This document shows positions 2,993-48,498 of a stretch of DNA of 64,000 bases, piece after piece. The translations under genes were made by a program, and so were the position numbers. The stretch is from an uncultured Chloroflexia bacterium (GTDB lineage Bacteria > Chloroflexota > Limnocylindria > Limnocylindrales > CSP1-4). The notes beneath the pieces are model-generated. The model made no database searches. It was not told the origin of the DNA and worked only from the letters and a program-made list of their open reading frames with translations. The stretch spans positions 224,001 to 288,000 of the forward strand of contig CAVRGP010000011.1 in the NCBI GenBank assembly GCA_963720755.1, in the 5' to 3' direction. The first letter of the stretch is position 1. The number at the start of each line of letters is the position of its first letter.

Positions 2993-4057
2993 ATGTACGC
3001 CGTGATCATGGCCGGGGGCGGCGGGACCCGGTTGCATCCGCTCAGCCGTCCCGAGCGCCCCAAGCCCTTCCTGCCCCTGCTCGGCGACCGGTCGCTCCTG
3101 CAGGACACGGTCGCCCGCGTCCTCGACCTGACGGACGACGTGACGGTCGTCACCGACCGGCGCTATGAGCAGCTCGTTCGGGATCAGGTCCCGGTCGCCG
3201 GTGTCGTGCTCGAACCGCAAGGACGGAACACGGCCGCCGCGATCACCCTGGCGACCCTGGCCATCGACCGGCCCGAGGATGACGTGATGGTCGTCCTTCC
3301 GGCCGATCAGACGATCGAGCGGGCGGATGTCTATCGAGCCATCATCCGCAGCGCCGCCGATCACCTGGCGACGGGGGCGTTCGGCATCGAGGCGCCCCTC
3401 GTGACCCTTGGCATCACCGTGGATCGCGCGGCCACGGAATACGGCTATCTGGTCCCGGACCTCGCCCGCGGCGCGGATATCGATGGGTGCCGTGCGTATC
3501 CGCTGACCCGCTTCGAGGAGAAGCCCAAGCCGTCTCGCGCGGATGCGCTGGCCGGCCAGGAGGGTGTGGCCTGGAATGCCGGGATCTTCCTGTGGCGCCG
3601 GTCGACGATCCGGGCCGCTCTGGGCCGGTACACCGGGCTGCTCCAGTCGCTCGGACCGATGATCGGGTCGCCGACATCGTTGCAGCACGCGTATGAGGCC
3701 ATCCAGCGGCCCGTGTCGATCGACTACGCGGTGATGGAGGGCGCCGCCCAGAGCGGGCAGGTCGTGATGGCCGCGATGGATGTCGGATGGTCGGATCTTG
3801 GCTCCTGGTCGTCCCTCATGGCTGCCCTGGGGGTATCGGGGACGGGGTCTGTGGTCCAGCCCGGTGAGACCGTTTCGGTCGACGATGACGATCTGATCGT
3901 GCGCCGCGTCGGGGGCCGGCTCGGCGTGATCGCGCCGATCGAGCCCGGTAGCATGACCGCGACCCAGCCACTCGCCCATCTCCGTGGTGCGGGGCCCGAC
4001 CGCCAGATCATCGAACGACTCCTGGAGCGTTGCAGCGCAGCGGAGGGAACGACGTGA
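2993..4057 (+). CDS. manC: Mannose-1-phosphate guanylyltransferase (no C-terminal cupin domain)
   Basis: IMAGGGGTRLHPLSRPERPKPF, EPQGRNTA, EYGY, FEEKP, WNAGIF, SIDYAVME, WSDLGSW. Confidence 0.9.
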   Translation: MYAVIMAGGGGTRLHPLSRPERPKPFLPLLGDRSLLQDTVARVLDLTDDVTVVTDRRYEQLVRDQVPVAGVVLEPQGRNTAAAITLATLAIDRPEDDVMVVLPADQTIERADVYRAIIRSAADHLATGAFGIEAPLVTLGITVDRAATEYGYLVPDLARGADIDGCRAYPLTRFEEKPKPSRADALAGQEGVAWNAGIFLWRRSTIRAALGRYTGLLQSLGPMIGSPTSLQHAYEAIQRPVSIDYAVMEGAAQSGQVVMAAMDVGWSDLGSWSSLMAALGVSGTGSVVQPGETVSVDDDDLIVRRVGGRLGVIAPIEPGSMTATQPLAHLRGAGPDRQIIERLLERCSAAEGTT

Positions 4058-5532
4058 CGCTCACCGGCCGACCGCCCACCCCGACGACGATCACGTTCGG
4101 GACGGACGGCTGGCGCGCCCGGATCGCCGACGAATTCACCTACGAGAATGTTCGGCGCTGCGCCGAAGGGGTTGCGGCCTACGTGGTCGGGCGCGGAGAG
4201 ATGGCCAAGGGGGTCGTCATCGCGTACGACCGACGTTTCTCGTCCGAGTATTTCGCGATGGCAGCGGCCGAGGTCCTGCTCGCCCACGACATCCCGGTCG
4301 CCTTCGGGATCCATGCTGTCCCGACCCAGATGTGCTCGTACGAGGTCGTCCAGCGTGGGGCCGCCGCCGGGATCGTCATCACCGCCAGCCACAACCCCTG
4401 GGTCGACAACGGGTTCAAGGTCAAGGCCCCGACCGGAGCCGCCGCCGGCGCGGACATCCTGGGAGCCATCGAAACCCGGCTGGCGGTCAATGGGGGCATC
4501 GGGATCGACCGCCGGCCGTTCGCGGACGCTGAAGCGGCCGGCCTGGTCGAACGCTTCGACCCGTTCGAAGGCTACGAGCGGTTCGTTCGCCGGACACTCG
4601 ACGTGGATGCGCTCAGGGCGGCCGACGTTTCGATCCTGGTCGATCCGATGTGGGGAGCCGGAGCCGGTTGGATCTCGCGCCTCCTGGCCGGTGGCCGGAT
4701 CCGGGTCGACGAGATCCACCAGGAGCGCAACCCGTACTTCGGCGGGGTCAACCCGGAACCGATCCGACCGAACATCGACGAAGCGCTCGGCCGGCTGGCG
4801 GGTGGGGGATACGACCTCGGTCTGTTCCTCGACGGCGACGCCGACCGGGCCGGCGCCGGCGACGAACGCGGGACGTTCATCCACCAGCTCCAGGTGACCG
4901 GTCTGCTGATGTACTACCTCGCCGAACATCGGGGCTTGCGGGACCCGGTCGTGATCAGCGTCAACAACACGTCGATGGCCGCCCGTCTCGGCGAGCGATA
5001 TGGGATCACCACCCACGAGACCCCGGTCGGATTCAAGTTCATCGGCCCGAAGATGATCGAGACCGAGGCGATGATGGGGGCCGAGGAGTCGGGCGGGTTC
5101 GGGTTCGGGATGCATCTCCCGGAGCGCGATGGCGTCTATGCCGACCTGATGCTGCTCGATCTCTTCCTGCGTGAGCGGGCCGCCGGGCGGTGGCCGGTGT
5201 CCAGCGCCATCGAGGCGTTCCACGCGATCGCCGGCCCGTCGTTCTACCTTCGGATCGACGTGCATGTCGAGCGCGCCGAGTACGCGGAGACCAAGCGGCG
5301 ATTGCTGGTCGATCTGGCGGCCGAGTCACCGGTCGATCTGGCCGGCGATGCCGTCGTCCGGACGGTGGCCCTCGAAACGGGCGATGGGTTCAAGTTCTTC
5401 CTGGCTGATGGATCGTGGCTGCTCATCCGCGCATCCGGGACCGAACCGCTCGTTCGCGTCTACACCGAAGCGACGTCGGCTGGACTCCGGGACGCGTTGC
5501 TCGCGGCCGGCGAACGTCTGGTGCGCGGCTGA
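4054..5532 (+). CDS. Phosphoglucomutase/phosphomannomutase
   Basis: FGTDGWR, TASHNP (phosphoserine), DGDADR, EESGG, RASGTEP; GTGA overlap with manC. Confidence 0.93.
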   Translation: MTLTGRPPTPTTITFGTDGWRARIADEFTYENVRRCAEGVAAYVVGRGEMAKGVVIAYDRRFSSEYFAMAAAEVLLAHDIPVAFGIHAVPTQMCSYEVVQRGAAAGIVITASHNPWVDNGFKVKAPTGAAAGADILGAIETRLAVNGGIGIDRRPFADAEAAGLVERFDPFEGYERFVRRTLDVDALRAADVSILVDPMWGAGAGWISRLLAGGRIRVDEIHQERNPYFGGVNPEPIRPNIDEALGRLAGGGYDLGLFLDGDADRAGAGDERGTFIHQLQVTGLLMYYLAEHRGLRDPVVISVNNTSMAARLGERYGITTHETPVGFKFIGPKMIETEAMMGAEESGGFGFGMHLPERDGVYADLMLLDLFLRERAAGRWPVSSAIEAFHAIAGPSFYLRIDVHVERAEYAETKRRLLVDLAAESPVDLAGDAVVRTVALETGDGFKFFLADGSWLLIRASGTEPLVRVYTEATSAGLRDALLAAGERLVRG

Positions 5533-5909
5533 TGGGTGATCCGCTGCACGGATCCCGGCGGGTCGACAAGCCCTGGGGCCACGAGCTCATCTGGGCCCAC
5601 ACGGATCGCTACGTCGGCAAGATCCTGGTCATCGAGGCCGGACGTCGCCTGTCGCTCCAGCGCCATGTGGTCAAGGACGAGTCGATCCTCGTCAACGCGG
5701 GACGCCTGCGGCTGTACCTCGAGGACGAGTTCGGCGCGATCCAGGTCGAGGAGCTCGGCGTCGGTGAGCACCGTCACGTGCCGACCGGTCGGATCCACCG
5801 ATATGAGGCGATCGAACGGACCGAGCTGATCGAAGTATCGACGCCGGAACTCGACGACGTGGTCCGACTCGAGGACGACTTCGGACGCGAAGGTACCAGC
5901 GCTCCATGA
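5532..5909 (+). CDS. Cupin protein resembling the type II mannose-6-phosphate isomerase domain
   Basis: VDKPWGHE, LSLQRH..KDES, IHR, EVSTPELDDVVRLEDDFGR; TGATG overlap with the mutase gene. Confidence 0.8.
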   Translation: MGDPLHGSRRVDKPWGHELIWAHTDRYVGKILVIEAGRRLSLQRHVVKDESILVNAGRLRLYLEDEFGAIQVEELGVGEHRHVPTGRIHRYEAIERTELIEVSTPELDDVVRLEDDFGREGTSAP

Positions 5910-6052
5910 CCGCCCGATAGGCCGATTTCGCCCGGTCCGAGTCGTACCGGCGGGTGTACCCTTGGGAGGACGCGACCGTCCTCACCGGTCGAGGTGCTGA
6001 CCGGACGGCGGCCCCGCGAGCGCCCGATACGGGCGATGGAGGTAGCGCTGCG

Positions 6053-6328
6053 ATGCACAGCTCTCTGATCGGCAAGGTCGAGAAGGCGAATCGCTACGCC
6101 CGCGAGCTCGATCGGATCACGATCGACCGAGTCTCACTCACGTTCCGTGGCGACAACGACACCCATCACATCGGGCTCGACGCCGGTCAGTGGCGATGCA
6201 CCTGCCACTACTTCGAGAGCTGGGGATCGTGCGTCCACCTCCTGACCCTCCAGAAGGTCTTCGGGGTGATGCTGCCCGAGGATGCCCAGGTGTCGATCTT
6301 CGCGGCTGCGGAGCCGATCGCGACCTAG
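6053..6328 (+). CDS. Small SWIM zinc-finger protein
   Basis: CTC-x7-CVH (CxC...CxH) motif; SD GGAGGT at 6038-6043. Confidence 0.75.
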   Translation: MHSSLIGKVEKANRYARELDRITIDRVSLTFRGDNDTHHIGLDAGQWRCTCHYFESWGSCVHLLTLQKVFGVMLPEDAQVSIFAAAEPIAT

Positions 6329-6335
6329 ATCCGGC

Positions 6336-7322
6336 TTATCGGCCGCGACGCCACGCGACCACCGCCCCGCGGGCGGGGCCGATCTCGGGTGTCGCGATGC
6401 GGCGCCACCCGGACGCCGCGTCGTGGACCGCCAGCGAGACTGACCCGTCCGTGGACGACCAGGCGATGGCGACTCGCTGGCCGTCGTCGTCGAGCGCGAG
6501 CGCGATCGCGGTCGAGCCCTTGTCCGGTGGGTCGATCGAGGCGAGCGACGAACCGTCGCTATCGAGCCAGCCGGTCGTGTCGTGGATGACGACCGGGGCT
6601 CCGCGACCGGCCATCGTCGCGACACGCTGACCGTTCGCCGATGCCGCCAGCAGACGTGACCCGTCGGGGCCGTCCGTCAGCCCACCGCCGGTGGTGGCCA
6701 GGATCACCGACGAGGGAGCCGAGCTATCGCCCGTCACGACGACGATGCGCTCGCTTCCGATCCAGGTCGGCGGCGCCGCCAGCACCGACCGGTCGATGGC
6801 GATCTCCAACGCCGTCCGCGAAGTCGGGTCGGTCACGGTGACGTGAACCCCGTTGCCGCTCGCCAGGTCGCCATCGAGCGTCGCGTACCGGCCCCCACCC
6901 GGGTCCCAGGTCGCGAAGTAGGCCGTCGTCGGGACGGGCACCCCGTCCGGGCCGACCGCCTGGACCGTTCGCCAGTCGAGGGTCGCACCGAGGCGTACGG
7001 GGTCGCTGGTCGCGACAGACCCATCGGCCAGCGTCGCGGCGAGGACATCCGCCCGCCCCGTCGCGATCCACGTCGTGTCGCCGTCGGGCAGGGCGATCGG
7101 GGTCGGACTGCCGGGATCGGTCGCCCAGCCGAGAAGGTGGACCCCGTCAGGCCCCGCGACCAGGGCGACCAGCCCGTTCGGCGTGGCCGCGGCGGCCGGC
7201 CCCGATCCAGCGCAGGCCGCGAGCAGCCCCACCAGCCCGATGAACGCGGCCAGCCGGGCGGCGGTCGGCGGGACGCCTCGCATTCGAGTCGCGGAACGGT
7301 GTCGCTCGGCAGGGCGTGGCAT
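6336..7322 (-). CDS. Putative lipoprotein, possibly beta-propeller (TolB/WD40-like)
   Basis: Hydrophobic stretch followed by lipobox LAAC; repeated W-D/S-x-x-G and ANGQRVA/DDGQRVA blade-like segments. Start uncertain (7322 or 7283). Confidence 0.6.
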   Translation of the reverse strand: MPRPAERHRSATRMRGVPPTAARLAAFIGLVGLLAACAGSGPAAAATPNGLVALVAGPDGVHLLGWATDPGSPTPIALPDGDTTWIATGRADVLAATLADGSVATSDPVRLGATLDWRTVQAVGPDGVPVPTTAYFATWDPGGGRYATLDGDLASGNGVHVTVTDPTSRTALEIAIDRSVLAAPPTWIGSERIVVVTGDSSAPSSVILATTGGGLTDGPDGSRLLAASANGQRVATMAGRGAPVVIHDTTGWLDSDGSSLASIDPPDKGSTAIALALDDDGQRVAIAWSSTDGSVSLAVHDAASGWRRIATPEIGPARGAVVAWRRGR

Positions 7323-36187: not shown

Positions 36188-37459
36188 ATGCCTGCCCCGC
36201 TCGTCGTCCAGAAATACGGTGGCTCGTCGGTGGCCGACGCCGACCGCATCAGGCAGGTCGCCGGCCGGATCGCCCGCGACCACGCCGCAGGACTCGACCT
36301 CGTCGTCGTCGTCTCGGCGATGGGCGACACGACCGATGAGTTACTCGGCCTGGCTGCGGCGATCACCGACGAGCCCGACCCGCGCGAGCTCGATGTCCTG
36401 CTGGCTACGGGAGAGCACCAGAGCGCGACCCTCCTGTCGATGGCGTTGCAGGGCCTGGGCGTCGATGCGATCAGCCTGACCGGGCCGCAGGCCGGGATCA
36501 CCACGGACGGTCGCTATGGCCGGGCTCGGATCGCCGGGATCGACCCGAGGCGGGTGCGCGCCGAGCTCAGCGTGGGCAAGGTCGTCATCGTGGCGGGGTT
36601 CCAGGGCCAGAGCGCGCGGGCCGTGGAGGATGACGAGATCACGACACTGGGTCGCGGCGGCAGCGATACCACCGCCGTGGCGCTCGCCGCCAGCATGGGT
36701 GCGGAACGTTGCCAGATCTTCACGGATGTCAACGGCGTGTACACGGCTGACCCGCGGCTGGTCGGGAAGGCACGCCAGTTGCACCTGATCGGTTACGAGG
36801 AGATGCTCGAACTCGCCCACCAGGGCGCCCAGGTCCTGCAGGTCCGCGCCGTCGAACTGGGATGGATCAACGACCTCGTCATCGAGGTCCTGAGCTCGTT
36901 CGAGGATGCACCGGGTACGCTCATCACGGAGGACCCACTCGTGGAGCAGCGCAACAAGGTCCGTGGCCTGGCCCACGACCGGAACGTCGCCAAGGTCACC
37001 GTCGTGGCCGTGCCGGACCGACCGGGCGTGGCGCGATCGATCTTCGAGCCATTGGCGGCGGCGTCGATCAACATCGACATGATCGTCCAGAACGTGGGTC
37101 ATGGCGGTGAGACCGACCTCTCGTTCACCGTCCCCCGGGTCGAACTGGCGGCGGCCAAGAAGGCCCTCGAACCACTCGTGCGCACGCTCGGCGCTCGGGA
37201 GCTCACGACCGATACGTCCGTCGCCAAGGTATCGATCGTCGGCGCCGGCCTGCACAACGCGCCCGGGTATGCCGCCCGGATGTTCGGGACGCTCGCCGAC
37301 GCTGGCGTCAACATCGAGATGATCTCGACATCCGAAGTGCGGATCACGTGCATGATCGCCGAGGCCGATCTCGAGACCGCGCTGCGGGCGCTCCACGATG
37401 CCTTCGAGCTCGAGCGGCCGGAACCCGTCGACGCGGTCGACCCGGCGGTGGCGACGTGA
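36188..37459 (+). CDS. lysC: Aspartate kinase
   Basis: QKYGGSSV, VSAMGDTTD, TLGRGGSDTTA, two ACT domains. Confidence 0.96.
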   Translation: MPAPLVVQKYGGSSVADADRIRQVAGRIARDHAAGLDLVVVVSAMGDTTDELLGLAAAITDEPDPRELDVLLATGEHQSATLLSMALQGLGVDAISLTGPQAGITTDGRYGRARIAGIDPRRVRAELSVGKVVIVAGFQGQSARAVEDDEITTLGRGGSDTTAVALAASMGAERCQIFTDVNGVYTADPRLVGKARQLHLIGYEEMLELAHQGAQVLQVRAVELGWINDLVIEVLSSFEDAPGTLITEDPLVEQRNKVRGLAHDRNVAKVTVVAVPDRPGVARSIFEPLAAASINIDMIVQNVGHGGETDLSFTVPRVELAAAKKALEPLVRTLGARELTTDTSVAKVSIVGAGLHNAPGYAARMFGTLADAGVNIEMISTSEVRITCMIAEADLETALRALHDAFELERPEPVDAVDPAVAT

Positions 37460-37487
37460 CCGTCTGTCGTCGGTTCCGGCCCCGCCG

Positions 37488-38312
37488 ATGACTGCCGTCC
37501 TCGCTCGGCTCGAGCGCTTCGACCGGGTCGGTTCGACCAATGACGTCGTTCGCGACTGGCTGGCCGAAGGCACACCCGAAGTGTGCCTGGCCGTGGCCTC
37601 CGAGCAGACCGACGGCCGTGGTCGCCAGGGCCGGGCATGGGTGGGACCACCCGGCCAGGCCCTGCTGCTGTCGGTCGGGTTCCGCCCGACGTGGGTGGAT
37701 CCCGCCGGCGTGTGGCGACTCGCGGCGACGGTGTCCATGGCGATGGCCGAAGCCGCCGAGGCGATGGCCGGTCTGCCGGCCGGTTCGATCCGCCTGAAGT
37801 GGCCGAACGACCTCGTCGTCGAGGTGGCGGGTCGGCCAGATGCGCCGGGCGCGGTCCGCAAGCTCGCCGGCGTCCTTGGCGAGACCGCCGGGCTCGGGAC
37901 GCTGGACCCGTCCGCCGTCGTCGGGATCGGGATCAACACCGACTGGTCGGCGTCGGACTTCCCGGCCGACCTGAAGTCATCGATGACGTCACTCCGCGAG
38001 GTCGGCGGTCGGCCGGTCGATGGTGCTGCGCTACTCGATCGCTTCATCGAGCGACTCGGGGCGCGGATCGACGACCTGCGCGAGTCCGGTCGGTTCGACG
38101 CGGTGGCATGGGCGGACCGGCAGGTCACGACCGGACGGATGATCCGGCTCGAGCGTCCCGATGGCGCCCTGTCGGCGCTCGCGGTCGGCGTCGACCCGAC
38201 GACGGGCGCCCTCATCATCCGCGAACCCGGGCCGTCCGGGCTGGACCGGTCGGTGGTTGTCGGCGAAGTCAGCCACCTCCGGTTCGTGGACCCAGTCGCG
38301 GCCGGGGTGTAA
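37488..38312 (+). CDS. birA: Biotin--acetyl-CoA-carboxylase ligase (group I, no HTH)
   Basis: GSTND, EQTDGRGRQGRAW, LKWPND, RKLAGVL, GIGIN. Confidence 0.92.
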   Translation: MTAVLARLERFDRVGSTNDVVRDWLAEGTPEVCLAVASEQTDGRGRQGRAWVGPPGQALLLSVGFRPTWVDPAGVWRLAATVSMAMAEAAEAMAGLPAGSIRLKWPNDLVVEVAGRPDAPGAVRKLAGVLGETAGLGTLDPSAVVGIGINTDWSASDFPADLKSSMTSLREVGGRPVDGAALLDRFIERLGARIDDLRESGRFDAVAWADRQVTTGRMIRLERPDGALSALAVGVDPTTGALIIREPGPSGLDRSVVVGEVSHLRFVDPVAAGV

Positions 38313-38333
38313 CACGATGACCCGATCTGCGTT
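38308..38333 (+). promoter_or_regulatory. Candidate ECF-type promoter TGTAAC-N16-CGTT
   Basis: AAC/CGT motifs with typical spacing at the start of the ECF sigma gene. Confidence 0.5.
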
Positions 38334-38943
38334 CTGGAAGGTAGGCCATCCGGAGGAGGACGGCCCGCGCCATGGCGATCTCGACCACGATCGACGTCTG
38401 GTCGAGGCGGCCAAGGCGGATCCGGCCCGCTTCGAGGCCCTCTATCGGAAGTACCTGGCCCAGGTGTACAGCTACGCGTTCTACGAGCTGCGCGACCCCC
38501 ACGATGCGGAAGATGCCACCGCACGAACCTTTCTCGCTGCCCTGGCCAACCTCGGTCGGTTCGAGGAGCGCGCTCGCCCGGCCGATGGCGACGGAGCCTC
38601 GACCTTCCGGGTGTGGCTATTCCAGATCGCCCGGAACGCCGTGGCCGAACGCCGGCGCCGTCAGCAGCGACGCCCCGAGGCGCCTCTCGAAGCCGCTGGA
38701 GCGATCGCATCGCCGATCGATGTCGAAGGTGACGCCGCCCGTCATGACGAGGCGTTTGCCGCCTGGAGCGCCGTGGGTCGTCTGCCGGACGACCGGCGCC
38801 GGGCGCTCGTCCTGCGCTTCGTGGATGAGATGACGACCAGGGAGATCGCGGGCGTCCTGGGCCGATCCGAAGGGGCCGTCCGGGTCCTCATCCACCGCGC
38901 ATTGCGCAGCCTCGCTCGCGACCTCGACGACCCGGCCGGATGA
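38317..38943 (+). CDS. ECF RNA polymerase sigma factor
   Basis: FEALYRKY, DAEDAT, FRVWLFQIARN, REIAGVLGRSEGAVRVLIHRA. Start uncertain. Confidence 0.9.
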   Translation: MTRSAFWKVGHPEEDGPRHGDLDHDRRLVEAAKADPARFEALYRKYLAQVYSYAFYELRDPHDAEDATARTFLAALANLGRFEERARPADGDGASTFRVWLFQIARNAVAERRRRQQRRPEAPLEAAGAIASPIDVEGDAARHDEAFAAWSAVGRLPDDRRRALVLRFVDEMTTREIAGVLGRSEGAVRVLIHRALRSLARDLDDPAG

Positions 38944-39371
38944 CGGGCCTCAGCGGGCGGGACGCGATCGAGATCGAAGCCCTGGTCACCGACCGATACC
39001 TCGATTCGTTGCTGGACGCCCACGCCCGAGGGGCCGATCGCGCTCCCGCGGCCACGCTTCCGTCGCTCCCGATCCGTACGGTCGCCGACCGATTGGCACG
39101 GGACCTTCCCCGCTACCACCCCTCATTTCGGTTCGAGGAGGCGCTGGCCGGCCGCCTGGCCGCGGTGGCCGAGACGATGCGTGCCCACGGTGGCCCAGGC
39201 CCGCAGGTCGTGGCCTTCCCCGGCGGACCGATCGGATCCGATGTCCGGCCGGCCCGTGGTCGTCCGCTTCTCGTTGGCGGCGCGGTCACGTCCGCGGCCC
39301 TGTCGCTCGCCGGTGCTGGCTATCTCGTCTGGCGCCGGGTTCGCCCCTCGGCTGGGTCGAGGGCGATCTGA
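38940..39371 (+). CDS. Putative anti-sigma or membrane-anchored partner of the ECF factor
   Basis: ATGA overlap with the sigma gene, PSFRFEEAL motif, C-terminal TM helix, TGATG overlap with accDA. Confidence 0.6.
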   Translation: MTGLSGRDAIEIEALVTDRYLDSLLDAHARGADRAPAATLPSLPIRTVADRLARDLPRYHPSFRFEEALAGRLAAVAETMRAHGGPGPQVVAFPGGPIGSDVRPARGRPLLVGGAVTSAALSLAGAGYLVWRRVRPSAGSRAI

Positions 39372-41293
39372 TGCCGATCAAGCTGCCGTCGTTCCGGGCG
39401 CATCGCGATGTCTATCCGGCCGATCTGTGGACCAACTGTCCGACCTGCGAGACGATGGTCTTCAACAAGCAACTCGAGAAGGCCCTTCGAGTCTGCCCGA
39501 CCTGCGGCCACCACTTTCGGTTGTCGGCGGCAGCGCGTCTCGAGCAGTTGCTCGATCCCGGGACCTGGTCGGAACGCGACGCCGGCCTCCAGTCGGTCGA
39601 CCGCCTCGGCTTCGTCGACCAGAAGCCATACCCGGACCGCCTGGCGGCGGCTCAGGCCGCGACCGGGATGCGCGATGCCGCCGTGTGGGGCACGGCCACC
39701 ATGTCAGGCCATCCCGTCGTGATCTGCGTGATGGACTTCGGGTTCATGGGCGGGTCGATGGGCGCGGTGGTCGGTGAGAAGGTCACCCGGGCGGCGGAAT
39801 TCGCCCTCGACTCGCGGACCCCGTTGGTCGTGGTCAGCGCCTCCGGTGGAGCGCGGATGCAGGAGGGGACGCTGGCCCTGATGCAACTGGCCAAGACCAT
39901 GGGCGCCATCGAGCGGCTACGGGCGGGTGGCGTGCCGTTCATCAGCGTCCTGGCCGACCCGACCACCGGTGGCGTGTTCGCGTCGTTCGCTGCGGTCGGG
40001 GATGTCAACATCGCCGAGCCCGACGCCCTGATCGGATTCGCCGGATCACGCGTCTCCGCCGGGACGATCGCCCAGGAGCTGCCCGAAGGGTTCCAGCGGT
40101 CCGAGTTCCTGTTCGAACACGGGTTCATCGACCGGGTCGTTGCCAGACCGGACCTGCGCGATGAACTCATCGGACTGCTCCGCCTCCTGCCCGCACGCTC
40201 CCTCGACGGGAGCGATCTGCCCCCGATCGACGGCGAACCGGCGGGTTTCCGACCGCTTTCGTTCCTCACCTCGCTGGCCGAGCGAGTGGCGGATCGGCCC
40301 TCCGGCGAACCGGCTGGCGGGCACGGGGAGGTCGCGACCTCGAGCGAGGATCCCCAGGAGGCGATGTGGGCCCGCGTCCAGCTCGCTCGCAACCTGCATC
40401 GCCCCAGGACCCTGGAGTTCGTGGCCTCGATGACCGACGAGTTCATCGAACTCCACGGTGATCGGTTGTTCGGGGACGATGCCGCGATCGTCGTCGGCCT
40501 GGCTCGCCTCGACGGACGCCGGGTGGCGATCGTCGGCCAGCAGAAGGGTGCTGACACCGAGGAGAACATCCGTCGGAATTTCGGGATGCCCCACCCGGAG
40601 GGCTATCGCAAGGCGATGCGGGTCATGGACCTGGCCGAGCGGTTCGGCCTGCCGGTGATCACCTTCGTCGACGTCCCCGGCGCCCATCCCGGACCGGAAT
40701 CGGAGGAGCGCGGCATCGCCGAGGCGATCGCTCGGTCGACCGGCCTGATGACCCGTCTGCGCACCCCGATCGTCACCGTCATCACCGGCGAAGGTGGGTC
40801 CGGTGGCGCGATCGCGATCGCGGTCGGCGACGTGGTCATCGCGCTGGAGAACGCCGTCTACTCGGTCATCTCACCGGAAGGTTGCGCCTCGATCCTGTGG
40901 CGGACGGCCGACGCTGCACCGGCGGCGGCCCTGGCGATGAAGATGGGGGCCGCCGACCAGGAAGCGATCGGCGTCGTCGACGTGGTGGTGGCGGAGCCCC
41001 CCGGTGGGGCGCACACGGACCCTGCTGACATGGGCCGGCGGCTCAAGGCGATCATCGTCGACCGGTTGGATGCACTCGACCAACTGCCTCTCGATGCGCT
41101 GCTCGAAGCGCGCTATCGGCGGTATCGGGCGCTCGGGTCCTACACTGAGCTCGTGCAGCCAGAACTTGCCCCGCCAGCTCCCCGGGGCCTTGGCGATCGA
41201 CTCCGTGACCTGCTCGATCCGGGTCGGCGCGTGGTCGGCGCCAGCGTGCCGTCCTGGTCGCGCGACGACCCGCCAGCGCATGAGGAGGTCTAG
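39371..41293 (+). CDS. accDA: Acetyl-CoA carboxylase carboxyltransferase beta-alpha fusion (AccD-AccA)
   Basis: N-terminal Zn finger CPTC..CPTC, GGSMG, SGGARMQEG, PTTGG (beta part); NFGMPHPEGYRKA, GEGGSGGA, YSVISPEG (alpha part). Confidence 0.95.
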   Translation: MPIKLPSFRAHRDVYPADLWTNCPTCETMVFNKQLEKALRVCPTCGHHFRLSAAARLEQLLDPGTWSERDAGLQSVDRLGFVDQKPYPDRLAAAQAATGMRDAAVWGTATMSGHPVVICVMDFGFMGGSMGAVVGEKVTRAAEFALDSRTPLVVVSASGGARMQEGTLALMQLAKTMGAIERLRAGGVPFISVLADPTTGGVFASFAAVGDVNIAEPDALIGFAGSRVSAGTIAQELPEGFQRSEFLFEHGFIDRVVARPDLRDELIGLLRLLPARSLDGSDLPPIDGEPAGFRPLSFLTSLAERVADRPSGEPAGGHGEVATSSEDPQEAMWARVQLARNLHRPRTLEFVASMTDEFIELHGDRLFGDDAAIVVGLARLDGRRVAIVGQQKGADTEENIRRNFGMPHPEGYRKAMRVMDLAERFGLPVITFVDVPGAHPGPESEERGIAEAIARSTGLMTRLRTPIVTVITGEGGSGGAIAIAVGDVVIALENAVYSVISPEGCASILWRTADAAPAAALAMKMGAADQEAIGVVDVVVAEPPGGAHTDPADMGRRLKAIIVDRLDALDQLPLDALLEARYRRYRALGSYTELVQPELAPPAPRGLGDRLRDLLDPGRRVVGASVPSWSRDDPPAHEEV

Positions 41294-41296
41294 CCA

Positions 41297-41896
41297 GTGC
41301 CCCGTCCCGCCAAGCGGCTCGGTGACGACCACTCCGAACGGTCCGACGCCGACCGAACGGCCGATCACACGGCGATCGATCGCCTGAGCGAAGGATTGCT
41401 GCCGGCCCTCATCGCCAAGCTCGGCGCGACCGGCCTCGGCGAACTCGAAGTCCGTGAGGGCGGCTGGCGAGTGCGCCTGCGTCGCCCGGCCGGAGGCGTG
41501 CCGATCGGCTCACGTGATCGACGTCCCGGTGATCGCGACCGAACCCCGTGGGTCGCTGGATCGACCGGCGCCGCCAGCGTGGGACTCACACCTGTGGGAC
41601 CCGGCCGCGACGACCGACACGATCGGGACGACACCGGTTCACGCGAACTCGGACGGATCGTCGCGACCGCGCCGGCGGTGGGCATCTTCCGGCCTCGCCC
41701 GGAGGCGCGCGCCGGCACCAAGATCCGGGCCGGCGACCGCCTTGGCTCGATCGACATGCTGGGCGTTCCGCAAGAGGTCATCGCTCCCTCCGACGGGGTC
41801 GTCGGGGCCAGCCTGGTCGAGCCCGGCGACGCCGTCGAATACGGGCAGGAACTCATCCTGATCGAGTTCGCGTCCGGCCCCGGTTCGGAGTCCTGA
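41297..41896 (+). CDS. BCCP-like biotinyl-domain protein lacking the biotinylated lysine
   Basis: GLGELEVREG N-terminus, TAPAVGIF and VEYGQEL are BCCP-like, but the EAMK site reads DMLG. Confidence 0.82.
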   Translation: MPRPAKRLGDDHSERSDADRTADHTAIDRLSEGLLPALIAKLGATGLGELEVREGGWRVRLRRPAGGVPIGSRDRRPGDRDRTPWVAGSTGAASVGLTPVGPGRDDRHDRDDTGSRELGRIVATAPAVGIFRPRPEARAGTKIRAGDRLGSIDMLGVPQEVIAPSDGVVGASLVEPGDAVEYGQELILIEFASGPGSES

Positions 41897-41898
41897 TC

Positions 41899-43269
41899 GT
41901 GTTCCGCAAGGTCCTCATCGCGAACCGCGGAGAGATCGCCATCCGGATCCTGCGCGCGTGCCGAGAGTTGGGCACGGAGACGGTGGTGGCGTACAGCGAG
42001 GCCGACCGCGACTCGCTGGCGGTCCAGCTCGCGGACGAAGCGATCTGCATCGGTCCGGCCGATGCCCGGCGGTCCTACCTTTCCGCGCCGGCGGTCATCT
42101 CGGCGGCCCTGGTGACCGGCTGTGACGCCATCCACCCGGGGTACGGCTTCCTGTCAGAGGACGAAGGGTTCGCCGAGGCGGTGGCTGCCCACGACATCAC
42201 CTTCATCGGGCCGCCGGCAGCGGTCCTGGAGCGGTTCGCGAGCAAGGCCGGCACCCGCCAGCTGTTCGCGGCCCACGGTCTGCCCACGATCCCGGGATCC
42301 GAGGGGATGTTGCGGGACGAGATGCATGCCCTCGACGAAGCGGACCGGATCGGTTACCCGGTCCTGATCAAGCCATCGGCCGGCGGTGGCGGCAAGGGGA
42401 TGCGGATGGTCCGGACGGGTCGCGAGCTCGAGTCGGTCCTCCGGGTCTGCCGCTCAGAAGCCAAGGCCGCATTCGGAGACGACTCCCTCTACCTCGAGAA
42501 GTGGCTGGACGAGAACCGGCACGTCGAGATCCAGGTCGTCATCGATCGGTACGGCCACGGGGTCCACCTCGGCGAGCGCGATTGCTCCGTCCAGCGTCGT
42601 CACCAGAAGATCCTGGAGGAGGCTCCGACCCCTGCCCTGTCGGAGGCGGCCCGGGCGGATCTGGCCGAGCGCGCCGTCAAGGCGGCGATGGCCGCAGGCT
42701 ATGAGAACGTCGGGACGCTCGAGTTCCTCGTCGACGCCGACGGCGCCTTCTATTTCATCGAGATCAACTGCCGCATCCAGGTCGAGCACCCGGTGACCGA
42801 GATGCTGACCGGCATCGATATGGTCGCGACCCAGATCCGGATCGCCGCAGGGGAGCCGCTGGGTTTCAGCCAGGCGGATGTGGCCCTCCGCGGTCACGCC
42901 ATCGAATTCCGGATCAATGCCGAGGATCCGGCCAACGGTTTCCAGCCCGGCTCCGGGGTCGTCGAGCGATACCACGCCCCGGGCGGTCCGGGCGTCCGGG
43001 TCGATTCCCACCTCTACTCCGGATACGATGTGCCGCCGTATTACGACTCCCTTCTCGGGAAGCTCATCGTCTGGGGGCCGGATCGCACCAGCGCCATCGC
43101 GCGCTCGCGAGTGGCGCTCGACGAACTGGTCGTCGAAGGACTCGTCACCAACGTCGCCATCCACCAGGCGTTGCTGGCCAACGAGGCCTTCCTGGCCGGC
43201 AAGATGACCACGAACCTGCTCGACCGGGTCGGGAGTGAAGCGATCCTCGCGGCGGCCGCCCGACCGTGA
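41899..43269 (+). CDS. accC: Acetyl-CoA carboxylase biotin carboxylase
   Basis: KVLIANRGEIA, HPGYGFLSE, GGGGKGMR, ERDCSVQRRHQK, RIQVEHPVTE. Confidence 0.97.
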   Translation: MFRKVLIANRGEIAIRILRACRELGTETVVAYSEADRDSLAVQLADEAICIGPADARRSYLSAPAVISAALVTGCDAIHPGYGFLSEDEGFAEAVAAHDITFIGPPAAVLERFASKAGTRQLFAAHGLPTIPGSEGMLRDEMHALDEADRIGYPVLIKPSAGGGGKGMRMVRTGRELESVLRVCRSEAKAAFGDDSLYLEKWLDENRHVEIQVVIDRYGHGVHLGERDCSVQRRHQKILEEAPTPALSEAARADLAERAVKAAMAAGYENVGTLEFLVDADGAFYFIEINCRIQVEHPVTEMLTGIDMVATQIRIAAGEPLGFSQADVALRGHAIEFRINAEDPANGFQPGSGVVERYHAPGGPGVRVDSHLYSGYDVPPYYDSLLGKLIVWGPDRTSAIARSRVALDELVVEGLVTNVAIHQALLANEAFLAGKMTTNLLDRVGSEAILAAAARP

Positions 43270-43344: not shown

Positions 43345-43800
43345 ATGACCGAAACCATCCATACGACCCGTGAGATCGAGGCGCTCATCCCGCACCGTTG
43401 GCCATTCCTGCTCGTCGATCGCATCGTCGAATACGACGCCGCGGCGCAACGGATCGTCGGGGTCAAGGGAGTGACTGCGACGGAGTGGTTCTTCCAGGGC
43501 CACTTTCCCGGAATGCCGGTGATGCCCGGAGTCCTCCAGGTCGAGGCGCTCGCCCAGACGATGGCGGTCTACGTCGCAAAGCAGCCGGGGTTCGGGGACA
43601 AGATCGGCCTGTTCGCCGGTGTCGATGGTTGTCGTTTCAGGCGCGTGGTCAGTCCCGGCGACACCCTGCATCTCGAGGTCACCATGGAGAAGCTCGGGAC
43701 GCGCTTCGGGCGCGGGCACGCGGTCGCAAGCGTTGACGGCGAGACCGCCTGTGAGGCGACGCTGAGTTTCGTCATCCCCGGCGAAGGCGTCCTTCGATGA
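43345..43800 (+). CDS. fabZ: 3-hydroxyacyl-ACP dehydratase
   Basis: PHRWPFLLVD, FFQGHFPGMPVMPGVLQVEALAQ. Confidence 0.96.
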   Translation: MTETIHTTREIEALIPHRWPFLLVDRIVEYDAAAQRIVGVKGVTATEWFFQGHFPGMPVMPGVLQVEALAQTMAVYVAKQPGFGDKIGLFAGVDGCRFRRVVSPGDTLHLEVTMEKLGTRFGRGHAVASVDGETACEATLSFVIPGEGVLR

Positions 43801-44543
43801 CCCGGATCGTGGCTCTTTCCGATGTCCACGGCAACGCGGTCGCGCTGACCGCGGTCCGCAAGGCGATCCGTGCCGAGAAACCGGACTTCGTCGCGATCGC
43901 CGGCGACCACGTCATGAACGGGCCTGATCCGGCCGGTGTCGTCGATCTTCTGCGAGAGATGGAAGCCGACGGGGCCGCGATCATCAGCGGCAATACGGAT
44001 GTCGCCGTCGCCGACTTCGACTACGCCGCCGCGTTCCCGTGGATGCGCGACGGCGTCCCGGACATCTACCGGGCAGCGGCCGAATGGGCGCACGACGCGC
44101 TTGGCGACGAGCGCGTGTCATGGCTCCGGCGCCTCCCGACCGAGCGGCGCCTGCACGCCGAGGACGGGACGATGGTGCTCATCTGCCATGCGTCTCCCGG
44201 CTCGCAGACCGCCGGCTTCGACGAGGAGCTCGACCCCAGTGTCGTCATCGAGCGGGCGAGCGCGACAGATGCTCGAGTCATCGTCTGCGGTCATACCCAC
44301 ACGCCTGCGGTCCGCGATCTGGGCTGGAAGCTGATCGTGAACGACGGTTCGGCCGGGTACGTCTTCGATGGCGATGCCACCGCGTCCTACGCCCGGATCG
44401 ACCTTGACGACGGGGAGATCGTCGCCGAGATCCGGCGAACTTCGTTCGACGCGCTCGCGGTCGCCGATGCCATCTCCGCCAGGGGATTGCCGGGCGACGT
44501 CTATCGGGCGGCCACGGTTCGAACCGGCAAGTTGGTCCGATGA
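43797..44543 (+). CDS. Calcineurin-like metallophosphoesterase
   Basis: SDVHGN, GD, GNTD, CHASPG, GHTH, NDGSAG; ATGA overlaps at both ends. Confidence 0.88.
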   Translation: MTRIVALSDVHGNAVALTAVRKAIRAEKPDFVAIAGDHVMNGPDPAGVVDLLREMEADGAAIISGNTDVAVADFDYAAAFPWMRDGVPDIYRAAAEWAHDALGDERVSWLRRLPTERRLHAEDGTMVLICHASPGSQTAGFDEELDPSVVIERASATDARVIVCGHTHTPAVRDLGWKLIVNDGSAGYVFDGDATASYARIDLDDGEIVAEIRRTSFDALAVADAISARGLPGDVYRAATVRTGKLVR

Positions 44544-45796
44544 CCGATCGTCGTCGAGTGGTCGTCACCGGGATGGGGATGCTCACCGCCCTCGGGACGG
44601 ACGTCGCGTCGACCTGGGAGGGCCTCATCCGTGGCACGAGCGGGGTGCGACCGATCGAATCGTTCGATCCGAGCCGGCTGTCGTCCCGGATCGGGGCCGA
44701 GGTCCAGGGCTTCGATGCGAGCCACGTCCTCGACCGCAAGGAAGTGCGCCGGACGGATCGATACATCCAGTTCGGGCTCGTCGCGGCGCGCGAGGCGCTC
44801 GACCAGGCGGGGTTGCCCGAACAATTCGAGGGCGACCTGGCCGAACGCACCGGGGTCATCCTCGGGACGGGTCTCGGCGGCGTCGGAACGCTCGTGGACG
44901 GCTTCTCGGTCAACGTGTTGCGCGGACCCGACCGGATCAGCCCGTTCCTCATCCCGATGGGCATCCCCAACGTCGGATCGGGGCAGATCGCCATCCAGTT
45001 CGGGATGACCGGACCGAACTTCACGACCGTATCCGCCTGCGCGACCGGAGGACACGCCCTCGGCGAGGCGAGCGAGATCATCCGTCGCGACGACGCCGAC
45101 GTCATGGTCGCGGGTGGCGCCGAGGCCGGGATCTTCGAGCCCATGGTCGGCGGGTTCGCTGCGATGCGCGCGCTGTCGACCCGGAATGACGACCCGGCAG
45201 CGGCATCTCGGCCGTTCAATTCCGGGCGCGATGGGTTCGTGGTCGGAGAGGGGGCTGGCGTGGTCATCCTCGAGAGCCTTGAACACGCCGAACGACGCGG
45301 GGCCGAGATCCTGGCCGAATTGGTCGGCTACGGCGCGACCGCCGATGCCTCCCACATCACCCTCCCGGCTCCTGGCGGGATCGGCGCGGTCCGGGCGGCC
45401 CGGCGTGCCCTGGCCAAGGCCGCGATGACGCCGGCCTCGATCGACCACGTCAACGCCCATGCCACGTCGACCCCGGAAGGGGACAGAGCCGAGCTGCAGG
45501 CGATCCGGACGATCTTCGGTCTGGCCGCGGAACGGATCTCGGTCACGGCCAACAAGTCGATGCTCGGTCATACCCTCGGTGCCGCCGGGGCGATCGAGGC
45601 GATCGTGTCCATCCAGACGATCCGTGAGGGGTGTATCCCGCCGACGATCAATCTGACCGACCCGGATCCGGAGGCCGCGGGACTCGACCTGACCCCGAAC
45701 GTGGCAGCGACCCGCCAAACGGACGTCGTCCTGAGCAACTCGTTCGGCTTCGGCGGGCAGAACACCGCGCTCATCTTCGCCAGGTACGGGCGATGA
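44540..45796 (+). CDS. fabF: 3-oxoacyl-ACP synthase II
   Basis: RRVVVTG, SACATG, NAHATST, KSMLGHTLGAAG, SNSFGFGG. Confidence 0.96.
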   Translation: MTDRRRVVVTGMGMLTALGTDVASTWEGLIRGTSGVRPIESFDPSRLSSRIGAEVQGFDASHVLDRKEVRRTDRYIQFGLVAAREALDQAGLPEQFEGDLAERTGVILGTGLGGVGTLVDGFSVNVLRGPDRISPFLIPMGIPNVGSGQIAIQFGMTGPNFTTVSACATGGHALGEASEIIRRDDADVMVAGGAEAGIFEPMVGGFAAMRALSTRNDDPAAASRPFNSGRDGFVVGEGAGVVILESLEHAERRGAEILAELVGYGATADASHITLPAPGGIGAVRAARRALAKAAMTPASIDHVNAHATSTPEGDRAELQAIRTIFGLAAERISVTANKSMLGHTLGAAGAIEAIVSIQTIREGCIPPTINLTDPDPEAAGLDLTPNVAATRQTDVVLSNSFGFGGQNTALIFARYGR

Positions 45797-46311
45797 CCGA
45801 CGAGCCCGTGGAGATGGCGACCCCCGAGCCGGGTGAAGCCGGTGACGTGGAGTTGCTCGGGCTGATCGATCGCTTGGCGGAATTGCTGGAGCGCTCCGAT
45901 CTGTCCGAGATCGAGGTCGAGTCCGGAGGCACCGGGATCGTCCTCCGGAAGCCACTGGCCGACGCACGGCCGGCCTTGGCTCCGATCGCCGGCGATCCTG
46001 CCCCGGGCGCGGACGCCACCACTGGCAGCGGCGAACCGTCGACCGCGGGACGCGATCCAGCGATGACGGCGCGTCCGTCGATCAAGGCGCCGCTGACCGG
46101 GATCTTCTATGCCTCACCGGCGCCCGGGACCGCGCCGTATGTCCAGGTGGGAGGTGAAGTCGCCGTCGGCCAGGTCATCGGTCTGATCGAGGCGATGAAG
46201 CTGTTCAATGAGATCAAGTCGGATCTCGCCGGCCGCGTCGTCCGGGTCGTCCCCGACAGTGGCGCCCTGGTGAAGGCGAAGCAGCCTCTCATCGAGGTGG
46301 AGCCCCTATGA
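45793..46311 (+). CDS. accB: Biotin carboxyl carrier protein with canonical lysine
   Basis: APLTGIFYASPAPG, IEAMKLFNEI (Lys codon at 46198-46200). Confidence 0.92.
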   Translation: MTDEPVEMATPEPGEAGDVELLGLIDRLAELLERSDLSEIEVESGGTGIVLRKPLADARPALAPIAGDPAPGADATTGSGEPSTAGRDPAMTARPSIKAPLTGIFYASPAPGTAPYVQVGGEVAVGQVIGLIEAMKLFNEIKSDLAGRVVRVVPDSGALVKAKQPLIEVEPL

Positions 46312-47513
46312 GCACGCCCGAGCGACGAGCACACGTGACCGGATGGGGTCGATACGCTCCGTCACAGGTCCTGACGAACCACGATCTCGAACAGATGGTG
46401 GACACGTCCGACGAGTGGATCACGACCAGGACGGGGATCCGCGAGCGGCGAGTCGCGGCGGCCGATGAGACCACCGCGTCGATGGCGGCCGTGGCGGCGA
46501 TGCGGGCTATCCGTACCGCGGGGATCGATCCCGACGAGATCGATCTGATCCTGCTGGCCACGCTCACGCCCGACTACTGGATGCCCTCGACCGCGGCCCT
46601 GGTCAAGGAGGCGATCGGCAATACTCGCGCGGCCGCCATGGACGTGGCGGCGGCGTGCTCGGGGTTCGTCTACGCGTATGCGACGGCCCAGGCCTACATC
46701 ACGAGTGGCATGGCCAGGCACGTCCTGGTCATCGGGGCCGAACTCCTGACCCGGTTCCTCGACTACACCGACCGCAACACGTGCATCCTGTTCGGGGACG
46801 GTGCCGGGGCCGTCGTCCTGTCGGCGTCCGACGCACCCGGCGGCGGTCTCGGCATCGAGATGACGACCGAACCCCAGGGTGCCTACATGATCTGGCTGCC
46901 CGCGGGCGGGGCCAAGAGTCCGCCGTCCGCGGAGACCATCGCCCGCGGCGAGCACTACATCCGGATGGAAGGCAAGGAGACTTACCGCTTCGCGACGCGG
47001 ACGCTGGCCTCGACCGCGCTGGCCTCGATCCGCCGATCCGGTCTCGAACCGGCCGACATCGCCCTGTTCATCCCGCATCAGGCGAACATCCGGATCATCG
47101 AGGCCGTCGCCAAGGGTCTGGATCTGCCGATGGACCGGATGTTCGTCAACCTCGACCGGTACGGGAACACGTCGGCCGCCTCCGTGCCGATGGCCCTCGC
47201 CGAAGCGGTCAACAGCGGCCGGGTCAAGGTCGGCGATCGGATCGTCATCGTCGCCTTCGGGGCGGGCTTCACCTCCGGGGCCGTGACCATCGAGTGGACG
47301 GCCGATCCGGCCCGTGGCATCGCCGGCGACGCTGCCGTGCGACCCGAGGACGTCCACGTCCGGTTGCCGGTCGACTGGGACTCGGTCGACCCGATCCCCG
47401 AGGCCCTTGCCGAGGTCATGCGCCGGCCGGGTGTCGTCGACGTCCCGCTGGACGACGTCGTGCCGGGTGAGCCGGAACCGGCGCGCCAGCACGAGGCAGC
47501 CGGTCGCCGGTGA
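46308..47513 (+). CDS. fabH: 3-oxoacyl-ACP synthase III with C-terminal extension
   Basis: TRTGIRERR, AACSGF, FGDGAGA, PHQANIRI, YGNTSAAS, GAGFT. Confidence 0.95.
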   Translation: MSTPERRAHVTGWGRYAPSQVLTNHDLEQMVDTSDEWITTRTGIRERRVAAADETTASMAAVAAMRAIRTAGIDPDEIDLILLATLTPDYWMPSTAALVKEAIGNTRAAAMDVAAACSGFVYAYATAQAYITSGMARHVLVIGAELLTRFLDYTDRNTCILFGDGAGAVVLSASDAPGGGLGIEMTTEPQGAYMIWLPAGGAKSPPSAETIARGEHYIRMEGKETYRFATRTLASTALASIRRSGLEPADIALFIPHQANIRIIEAVAKGLDLPMDRMFVNLDRYGNTSAASVPMALAEAVNSGRVKVGDRIVIVAFGAGFTSGAVTIEWTADPARGIAGDAAVRPEDVHVRLPVDWDSVDPIPEALAEVMRRPGVVDVPLDDVVPGEPEPARQHEAAGRR

Positions 47514-47752
47514 GGGACCTCGGTGGGCTGTTCTCCGTCCTGCGCATCTTCGAGTACGTTTGGTGGTATGGGATCAGGCCCGTAGTCGGCTGGCGCCGTT
47601 GGAGGACCGATCGTAAAGATCGTCTCGATCTCGAGGTTGCCGCAGCGAACGAGCGGATCCGGGCGATGTTTCCGGCGCCTGAGCGCCGCCCGAGCCAAGA
47701 CGTCCGGAGTGCGACACCGGTCGACCCCTTGATGACGGAGGACCTGACATGA
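47510..47752 (+). CDS. Small hypothetical protein (80 aa)
   Basis: Fills the fabH-fabG gap with GTGA and ATGA overlaps; aromatic, amphipathic N-terminus. Confidence 0.55.
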   Translation: MRDLGGLFSVLRIFEYVWWYGIRPVVGWRRWRTDRKDRLDLEVAAANERIRAMFPAPERRPSQDVRSATPVDPLMTEDLT

Positions 47753-48498
47753 TCGACCTGACCGGCAAGGTGGCCCTGGTGACCGGCGGTTCGCGCGGGA
47801 TCGGTCGGGCGATCGTCACTCGACTGGCGACCCAGGGCGCCGACGTGGCGTTCACGTACAAAGGCAATGTCGCCGCGGCCGCGGAGACCACCTCGGTCGT
47901 GGAGGGCTTTGGCCGGCGCGCGCTGGCCGTCCAGGGGGATGCGGCACAGGTCGAGACCGCGGAGGCGGTCGTGAAGGGCATGCTGGAGGCGTTCGGCAAG
48001 GTCGACATCCTGGTCAACAACGCCGGGATCACCCGCGACGATCTGATCATGCGGATGACCGAGAGCACCTGGCGCGAGGTCCTGGAGACCAACCTGTTCG
48101 GTGCCTTCTACATGACCAAGGCCGTGACCCGCCCGATGCTCAAGGCTCGCGGCGGCCGGATCATCAACATCACGTCCGTGTCCGGGCAGGCGGGTCAGAC
48201 CGGGCAGGCGAACTACTCGGCCGCCAAGGCCGGCCTGATCGGGCTGACCAAGGCCACGGCCCGCGAGCTCGCGAGTCGGTCCATTACGGTCAACGCGGTC
48301 GCGCCAGGGTTCGTGCTCACCGAGCTGACGCAGGACCTTCCGGACGCGCTCAAGGACGAGATCACGGCCAGGACACCACTCGGACGGTTCGGCGAGACGA
48401 GCGAGATCGCCAACGCGGTCGCCTTCCTGGCGTCGGACGAAGCGGGCTACATCACCGGCCAGGTGCTGGCGGTCGATGGCGGCCTGGTGATGATGTAG
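47749..48498 (+). CDS. fabG: 3-oxoacyl-ACP reductase
   Basis: TGGSRGIG, NNAGITRD, YSAAKAG, VAPGF. Confidence 0.96.
   Translation: MIDLTGKVALVTGGSRGIGRAIVTRLATQGADVAFTYKGNVAAAAETTSVVEGFGRRALAVQGDAAQVETAEAVVKGMLEAFGKVDILVNNAGITRDDLIMRMTESTWREVLETNLFGAFYMTKAVTRPMLKARGGRIINITSVSGQAGQTGQANYSAAKAGLIGLTKATARELASRSITVNAVAPGFVLTELTQDLPDALKDEITARTPLGRFGETSEIANAVAFLASDEAGYITGQVLAVDGGLVMM

Follow-up and report, generated by a model that had tools for sequence, protein, structure and literature searches.

Acetyl-CoA carboxylase (ACC) catalyzes the committed step of fatty acid synthesis and is a target both of antibiotics and of oil-crop engineering. In plants and green algae, the heteromeric enzyme is tied to BADC proteins (BADC1-3 in Arabidopsis), which resemble the biotin carboxyl carrier protein (BCCP, or AccB), lack the biotinyl-lysine motif, and occur alongside a true BCCP. 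BADCs have been proposed either as inhibitors or as the "glue" of the subcomplex of biotin carboxylase (BC) and BCCP, and are called "unique to the plant htACCase" in the passages of PMC11926652 drawn on here; within that portion of the text, such look-alikes are treated as a plant peculiarity whose role, brake or glue, is disputed. Full-text literature searches, which cover few subscription papers, found no description of a bacterial lysine-less BCCP. Here we describe such a protein, called X, from an uncultured Chloroflexia bacterium (assembly GCA_963720755.1). The window, meaning the whole 64,000-nucleotide stretch analyzed (contig CAVRGP010000011.1, positions 224,001 to 288,000 of the forward strand), carries the gene for X between a fused accD-accA gene and accC. 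We regard X, with moderate confidence, as a fifth, non-catalytic subunit of the heteromeric ACC, in the role of an anchor that stays docked or of an aid to assembly. The features on which this reading turns are the following.

41297..41896, plus strand: X, the lysine-less BCCP paralogue, 199 amino acids (aa), GTG start
41345..41482, plus strand: N-terminal BCCP-type domain of X, residues 17-62, two helices and a beta hairpin, with E49, E51, and R60 invariant
41483..41653, plus strand: disordered linker of X, residues 63-119, rich in Gly, Ala, Arg, Pro, and Asp, with a V-G-P-G motif
41654..41866, plus strand: C-terminal biotinyl-type barrel of X, residues 120-190, AlphaFold2 confidence score (pLDDT) 97
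41750..41767, plus strand: hairpin I-D-M-L-G-V, residues 152-157, with Gly156 at the biotinyl-lysine position
41834..41848, plus strand: V-E-Y-G-Q motif, residues 180-184, a predicted AccC contact
39371..41293, plus strand: fused accD-accA (carboxyltransferase [CT] beta and alpha), 640 aa, Pfam Zn_ribbon_ACC, Carboxyl_trans, and ACCA
41899..43269, plus strand: accC (biotin carboxylase), GTG start, TIGR00514 at 640.7 bits
45793..46311, plus strand: canonical AccB/BCCP with I-E-A-M-K-L, flanked by fabF and fabH

X is BCCP-like from end to end, as an earlier note made from the sequence alone had proposed. It aligns with the window's own AccB over X residues 27-190 (BLASTP; 27% identity, 168 columns, E 1e-5), and a profile of 39 family members aligns at its positions 34-186 with full-length E. 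coli BCCP (4hr7_B; E 2.1e-18), an alignment that spans the N-domain and the biotinyl domain and pairs the acceptor lysine with Gly156 of X. The AlphaFold2 model (mean pLDDT 79) scores about 90 in the N-domain and 97 in the barrel, with the linker disordered, and so has the three parts of a BCCP: N-domain, flexible linker, and barrel-sandwich. The best Protein Data Bank matches of the barrel in Foldseek are BCCP biotinyl domains, including 1bdo and 4hr7_G, and superposition on E. coli 1bdo gave a target-normalized TM-score of 0.83 at a root mean square deviation of 1.3 Å. The departure lies in the hairpin. At the very coordinates given in the earlier note, X reads I-D-M-L-G-V where the window's AccB reads I-E-A-M-K-L, and the lysine of the (A/V)-M-K-(M/L) hairpin that marks a functional AccB is missing. 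The thumb region of X has a 6-residue gap relative to E. coli BCCP in the family profile alignment.

Curated models score X below their thresholds (18.7 bits against 22.1 for Pfam Biotin_lipoyl and 32.6 against 115.2 for TIGR00531), and the window's true AccB likewise falls under the TIGR00531 cutoff (100.7 against 115.2 bits). These scores account for the inconsistent naming of such proteins in the sources, as "hypothetical protein" or "biotin carboxyl carrier protein," and as databases give the latter label to many X proteins, functional carriers are miscounted. A precomputed PF25917 (BSH_RND) label and a weak RND_mfp match, which could be read as pointing to a transporter component, reflect the shared barrel-sandwich fold, and that reading was rejected. 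In the otherwise variable linker, an [AVLI]-G-P-G motif recurs in 156 of 235 full-length family members and may serve in binding as a short linear motif.

The loss of the lysine is a conserved state, neither a lesion nor decay. Of 5149 candidates in a word-indexed protein search with X, 3304 matched at E <= 0.001; among the matches listed, the best 120 of the 3304 (62-100% identical), all 120 carry glycine in the acceptor column, 119 as M-L-G and 1 as V-L-G. Cluster representatives at 50% identity were searched exhaustively; 1017 matched at E <= 0.001, 285 of them at E <= 1e-10, and the best 150 were examined: glycine occupies the acceptor column in 147, the remaining 3 being gaps or fragments, and the triplets in the 147 are V-L-G (94), M-L-G (25), L-L-G (16), C-L-G (10), V-I-G (1), and I-L-G (1). 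The lysine that relatives would carry had the change been strain specific, a possibility raised in the earlier note, is replaced by glycine in both sets, apart from the 3 gaps or fragments. E49, E51, R60, G140, L155, G156, E181, and G183 are invariant in 39 diverse members, among which no lysine is invariant or near-invariant; a search of the family for a conserved alternative lysine found none, the best columns being K41 (62%, in the N-domain) and K142 (43%). A shifted acceptor is therefore unlikely, and, to judge from its sequence, X should be unable to accept biotin.

Both folded domains of X are under purifying selection. The ratio of nonsynonymous to synonymous substitution rates (dN/dS; Nei-Gojobori method, NG86, 36 within-genus pairs) is 0.11 for the N-domain and 0.22 for the C-domain, next to 0.12 for accC in the same genomes and 0.58 for the poorly alignable linker, all of them rough values because dS lies at 0.6 to 0.9, near saturation. 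The two folded domains thus fall well within the range below 1 that the earlier note had named as a check. One could still suppose that X is left over from an accB duplication and is decaying or evolving neutrally, since curated BCCP and Biotin_lipoyl models leave it under threshold and its branches in trees are longer than those of AccB. The conservation data already contradict this: all 40 loci inspected have an uninterrupted open reading frame (ORF), invariant residues include the L-G of the hairpin, dN/dS is 0.11 to 0.22, and the gene is retained classwide. We therefore give a relic almost no probability, in keeping with the earlier note, which had seen an intact gene and no pseudogene.

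X is a feature of the class Limnocylindria (Chloroflexota), in which we distinguish five families, f1 to f5; related public records are named Candidatus Limnocylindria or Limnocylindrales. A match to X was found in 149 of 151 sampled class genomes (142 of 144 when 7 unpublished genomes, which enter into no other result, are left out) and in all 111 genomes of 90% completeness or more; the two genomes with no match are 76% and 84% complete. By family, the genomes with a match number 44/44 (f1), 6/6 (f2), 47/49 (f3), 50/50 (f4), and 1/1 (f5). The f2 genomes, of only 1.0 to 1.4 Mb, keep X in all six cases, and AccB is also present in the three f2 loci examined. The hairpin varies by family within the L-G frame, being D-[MV]-L-G in f1, [DE]-V-L-G in f2, [DE]-[MV]-L-G in f4, and [KRQ]-S-L-G in f3 and f5. 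ESM Atlas matches to X fall in Chloroflexota clusters only.

In the window, 3 nucleotides (nt) separate the stop of the fused accD-accA gene from the start of X, and 2 nt separate the stop of X from the GTG of accC. Across the class, the lysine-less gene directly follows accA in all 40 loci examined, which represent all five families. The distance to accC is less uniform: among 91 class loci, a few of them duplicated between two sets, accC begins less than 150 nt after X in 54 and at least 150 nt downstream in 35, and its start lies outside the locus in 2. The earlier note had placed X in the accB slot directly before accC, within a conserved order accDA-X-accC; the accA-X half of that order stands, whereas X-accC adjacency holds in this genome and in the 54 close-spaced loci and is absent from 35. 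In most of these 35, the gap is about 970 nt, and in both loci checked it is filled by a fabD-like gene (Acyl_transf_1, E 1.7e-44 and 1.7e-38), at 5489-6454 in locus L028 (f4) and at 3763-4689 in locus L035 (f3). A 94-aa ORF with no Pfam match adjoins X in L035. No clean gene fusion involving X was found, although no dedicated search for longer proteins was made; an apparent AccA-X fusion ORF in locus L037 arises from a stretch of N left by masking, and two long database proteins (P0242 and P0189) taken as possible X fusions look like frame-shifted gene calls.

A canonical AccB coexists with X. It is encoded 4 kb downstream in the window, and wherever one of the 40 loci reaches that far (14 loci, of f2 and f4), a canonical AccB (I-E-A-M-K-L-F-N-E-I) lies between fabF and fabH, as it also does in named Chloroflexota records, mostly f1-like loci; in f3 it is found 5 to 15 kb from X on the same contig in the five genomes searched. 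X therefore shows the combination that characterizes BADCs, a BCCP-like protein that has no biotinylation motif and is accompanied by a true BCCP. X might instead serve some other biotin-dependent or BC-containing enzyme or partner, its place in the operon being historical. Four further Biotin_lipoyl matches lie in the genome outside the locus, some in long ORFs, and lysine-less relatives elsewhere occupy other contexts (beside an EF-P-like ORF in locus L118 of a Dictyobacter metagenome-assembled genome [MAG], and in locus L098 of isolate HOG27). Such a role is improbable for X itself, whose gene comes next after accA at every one of the 40 loci from the class families and for which an interface with AccC is predicted at high score.

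That interface comes from a complex model of AccC and X, which scored 0.78 against 0.00 for the best of 3 controls; among solved complexes, 58 of 80 attain the mark used for this score, against 2 of 110 among mismatched pairs, and since custom alignments were used, these counts apply only roughly here. Model runs shared at least 43% of contacts, with partner pLDDT of at least 55. On the AccC side, the predicted interface comprises residues 34, 49-53, 59, 64-65, 67-69, 71-73, and 98, all within Biotin_carb_N (1-110) and away from the ATP-grasp domain (119-321). On the X side, it comprises residues 127-130, 154-155, 157, 179, and 181-184, and takes in 9 of the 12 invariant or near-invariant C-domain positions, including A127, V128, G129, L155, and E181-G183. 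In the model, the N-terminal domain of AccC is contacted by the most conserved stretches of X (PAVG, the hairpin, and VEYGQ), and the model supports binding of X to AccC, in line with the docking that the earlier note had suggested modeling.

The V-E-Y-G-Q motif separates the two paralogues within the class. It is present in 96 of 96 X proteins and in none of 61 AccB proteins, all 61 of which carry a basic variant at the site (V-K-A-K-Q, V-K-R-Q-Q, V-K-R-K-Q, or V-R-A-H-Q). The same split is seen in two Armatimonadota genomes, where a lysine-less gene adjacent to accC has VEYGQ and a canonical AccB encoded elsewhere does not.

The loss of the lysine, the selection on both folded domains, the synteny with accA, the coexistence with AccB, and the AccC model all support the idea, raised in the earlier note, of a non-biotinylated structural or regulatory ACC subunit, and we favor the structural side of it. 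X keeps two parts of a BCCP, the N-terminal domain and the barrel face that would dock on biotin carboxylase. Its C-domain may stay bound at all times to the N-terminal domain of AccC, at the site where BCCP docks without taking part in catalysis, while the N-domains of X and of true AccB may co-oligomerize. In such an arrangement, X would be the immobile part, an anchor or an aid to assembly, produced in step with accDA and accC, and the lysine-bearing AccB, with VKAKQ in place of VEYGQ, would be the mobile carrier shuttling between BC and CT. Binding, co-oligomerization, and this division of labor are what we infer from the pattern as a whole.

The E. coli ACC filament offers a precedent. 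In the parts of the preprint used here (10.1101/2024.05.28.596234), BC binds the C-domain of BCCP at a non-catalytic site that is also occupied in 4HR7 and lies next to the N terminus of AccD; BCCP N termini, which probably oligomerize, account for the central filament density; almost no activity is left when AccB lacks its first 58 residues; and docked BCCPs are proposed to hold translocating ones in place. X links to this last proposal of tethering, and an intact N-domain and docking face without the lysine fit the anchoring role of a docked BCCP, for which reason we prefer the anchor or assembly reading. The coupling to the operon and the retention in very small genomes also lean, in our interpretation, toward a structural role.

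Several points weigh against this preference. A docked dummy could equally block a site that AccB needs. A like complex, E. coli BC-BCCP (4HR7), is already solved, and the success of the AccC-X model may be recall; the model speaks for a retained docking face rather than for binding itself. E. coli BCCP has VEFDE at the VEYGQ site, and the occurrence of VEYGQ in AccBs of other phyla rests on a sample biased by its selection with patterns from an 8-member alignment, which picked out VEYGQ and VDVL. What a thumb 6 residues shorter means for the role of X is uncertain, the dN/dS estimates are rough, and any role in an uncultured organism is here argued from sequence and model. In-vivo work on BADCs (Salie 2016 and Keereetaweep 2018) has, moreover, been interpreted as inhibition, according to the passages of PMC11926652 that cite it.

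That interpretation leads to the main rival, in which X is a negative regulator that competes with holo-AccB for places on biotin carboxylase or in the BCCP oligomer and thereby lowers ACC activity, the role that was originally suggested for plant BADCs. Its anatomy, with the BC-docking face and N-domain kept and the lysine lost, is that of a competitive dummy. On the other hand, gaps of 2 to 3 nt to accDA and accC suggest that X is probably made in fixed proportion and not on signal, its presence in 6 of 6 genomes of 1.0 to 1.4 Mb would fit a structural need better than fine tuning, and class AccBs lack VEYGQ, so that the two proteins may not compete for one site. We consider a brake of this kind somewhat unlikely. 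X could also act outside the enzyme as a transcriptional autoregulator, specialized in the accBC-repressor role of the E. coli AccB N terminus: the N-domain is its most constrained part (dN/dS 0.11), and the BCCP N terminus is discussed as a regulator of expression in the parts of 10.1101/2024.05.28.596234 used here. The barrel, however, is also under purifying selection (0.22), the conserved residues form a BC-docking face that binding of DNA or RNA would not need, and Pfam and TIGR family searches detected no nucleic acid-binding domain in X. An autoregulator is, on this evidence, very improbable.

Lysine-less relatives were also found outside Limnocylindria, in the following loci.

L096 4851-5255: lysine-less gene of an Armatimonadota MAG, hairpin A-L-G
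L109 4812-5225: lysine-less gene of an Armatimonadota MAG, hairpin V-F-G
L118 4281-4808: lysine-less gene of the Dictyobacter MAG, hairpin Q-S-L-N, between EF-P-like and XseA-like ORFs (a reading of the ORFs alone)
L098 3666-5198: lysine-less gene of the Chloroflexota MAG isolate HOG27, hairpin E-V-L-R, with two canonical AccBs in the genome

In both Armatimonadota MAGs, the lysine-less paralogue lies directly 5' of accC and canonical AccBs are encoded elsewhere in the genome. A search with the Armatimonadota protein gave 20 matches, and the 15 examined comprise 11 with A-L-G-I-[AS]-N, 1 with A-L-G-M, and 3 with lysine; the replacement of M-K by L-G thus recurs. In a quick tree of 71 rows, class AccBs (support 99), X proteins of f1, f2, and f4 (97), and X proteins of f3 (99) each form a clade. 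A more careful tree (75 rows, 151 columns) unites all lysine-less proteins in one clade (UFBoot 99, SH-aLRT 92), with the canonical AccBs of these phyla as its sister group (98/83). Without the hairpin and VEYGQ positions, the alignment has 139 columns and the lysine-less clade is supported at only 62/69, while two subclades persist, one of f1/f2/f4 X with HOG27 (98/89) and one of f3 X with Armatimonadota (96/86); the approximately unbiased (AU) test did not reject a tree in which the X proteins of the class group together (p 0.30). Given this loss of support, one ancient origin of all lysine-less forms is possible only. Tentatively, five-subunit heteromeric ACCs may be widespread, at least in Chloroflexota and Armatimonadota, through an old accB duplication that gave a lysine-less L-G anchor keeping VEYGQ and a carrier without the docking face, with plants having converged on or inherited the same arrangement.

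The remaining genes of the neighborhood, together with the start signal of X, are as follows.

41282..41288, plus strand: Shine-Dalgarno-like GAGGAGG, 8 nt 5' of the GTG of X, read from the sequence
37398..38312, plus strand: biotin protein ligase (BirA-like), sole Pfam match BPL_LplA_LipB
38317-38943, plus strand: extracytoplasmic function (ECF)-type sigma factor, Pfam Sigma70_r2 and r4
38940-39371, plus strand: 143-aa ORF with no Pfam match
43345-43800, plus strand: fabZ
43797-44543, plus strand: metallophosphoesterase (calcineurin-like)
44540-45796, plus strand: fabF
46308-47513, plus strand: fabH
47749-48498, plus strand: fabG

From the sigma factor gene to fabH, the plus-strand acc/fab operon is tightly packed, with 4-nt overlaps or 2- to 3-nt gaps at most junctions; accDA, exceptionally, begins with an overlap of 1 nt, and 75 nt separate accC from fabZ, with a further gap of 235 nt 5' of fabG. 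The sigma factor gene and the 143-aa ORF (38317-39371) stand directly 5' of accDA, and as the ORF overlaps the sigma factor gene by 4 nt and accDA by 1 nt, the operon may be cotranscribed with its own sigma/anti-sigma pair. A search for sequencing runs over 39371-43269 listed none from RNA. The metallophosphoesterase gene is inserted between fabZ and fabF, overlapping each by 4 nt. The fusion of accD and accA into a single 640-aa ORF is shared with close relatives, and the two are separate ORFs in more distant class families. In the biotin ligase, Pfam detected the catalytic BPL_LplA_LipB domain and no DNA-binding domain, so that a role as a BirA-type repressor is improbable; its ORF and the end of an aspartokinase gene overlap, and the position of its start codon is uncertain.

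Taken at the level of sequence, a class of uncultured soil and freshwater bacteria retains, within its ACC operon, a conserved twin of the carrier that should be unable to carry biotin. Were such an operon-encoded bacterial counterpart of BADC confirmed, dummy carriers would be a recurrent solution in heteromeric ACCs, and a widespread five-subunit ACC, if real, would provide a simple bacterial system for settling what BADC-type subunits do. The five-gene bacterial set, expressible in E. coli, would lend itself to tests of mechanism.

Among known proteins, X shares its three-part layout, fold, and operon neighborhood with AccB/BCCP (TIGR00531; E. coli 1BDO and 4HR7), from which it differs in the glycine at the acceptor position, the shorter thumb, and a linker that is charged and rich in Gly and Arg, whereas that of AccB/BCCP is rich in Ala and Pro. 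The other bacterial lysine-less paralogues have the BCCP layout, no acceptor lysine, and VEYGQ (VEFGQ in one fetched homologue), as X does, but differ in hairpin residues and gene contexts. The epsilon subunits (AccE) of Actinobacteria are small proteins that are not known to be related to BCCP or to have its fold. In the text of PMC11926652 as far as it was used, actinobacterial AccE is a non-catalytic "glue" subunit that aids assembly of a bacterial biotin carboxylase complex. The plant and algal BADCs remain the nearest parallel: X resembles them in being a BCCP-like companion of a true BCCP in a heteromeric ACC, a likeness of features, and differs in being bacterial, in being encoded within the ACC operon, and in its D-[MVL]-L-G hairpin. 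X is best read as a bacterial version of the dummy-carrier principle described for BADCs, one that brings the question of anchor versus brake with it.

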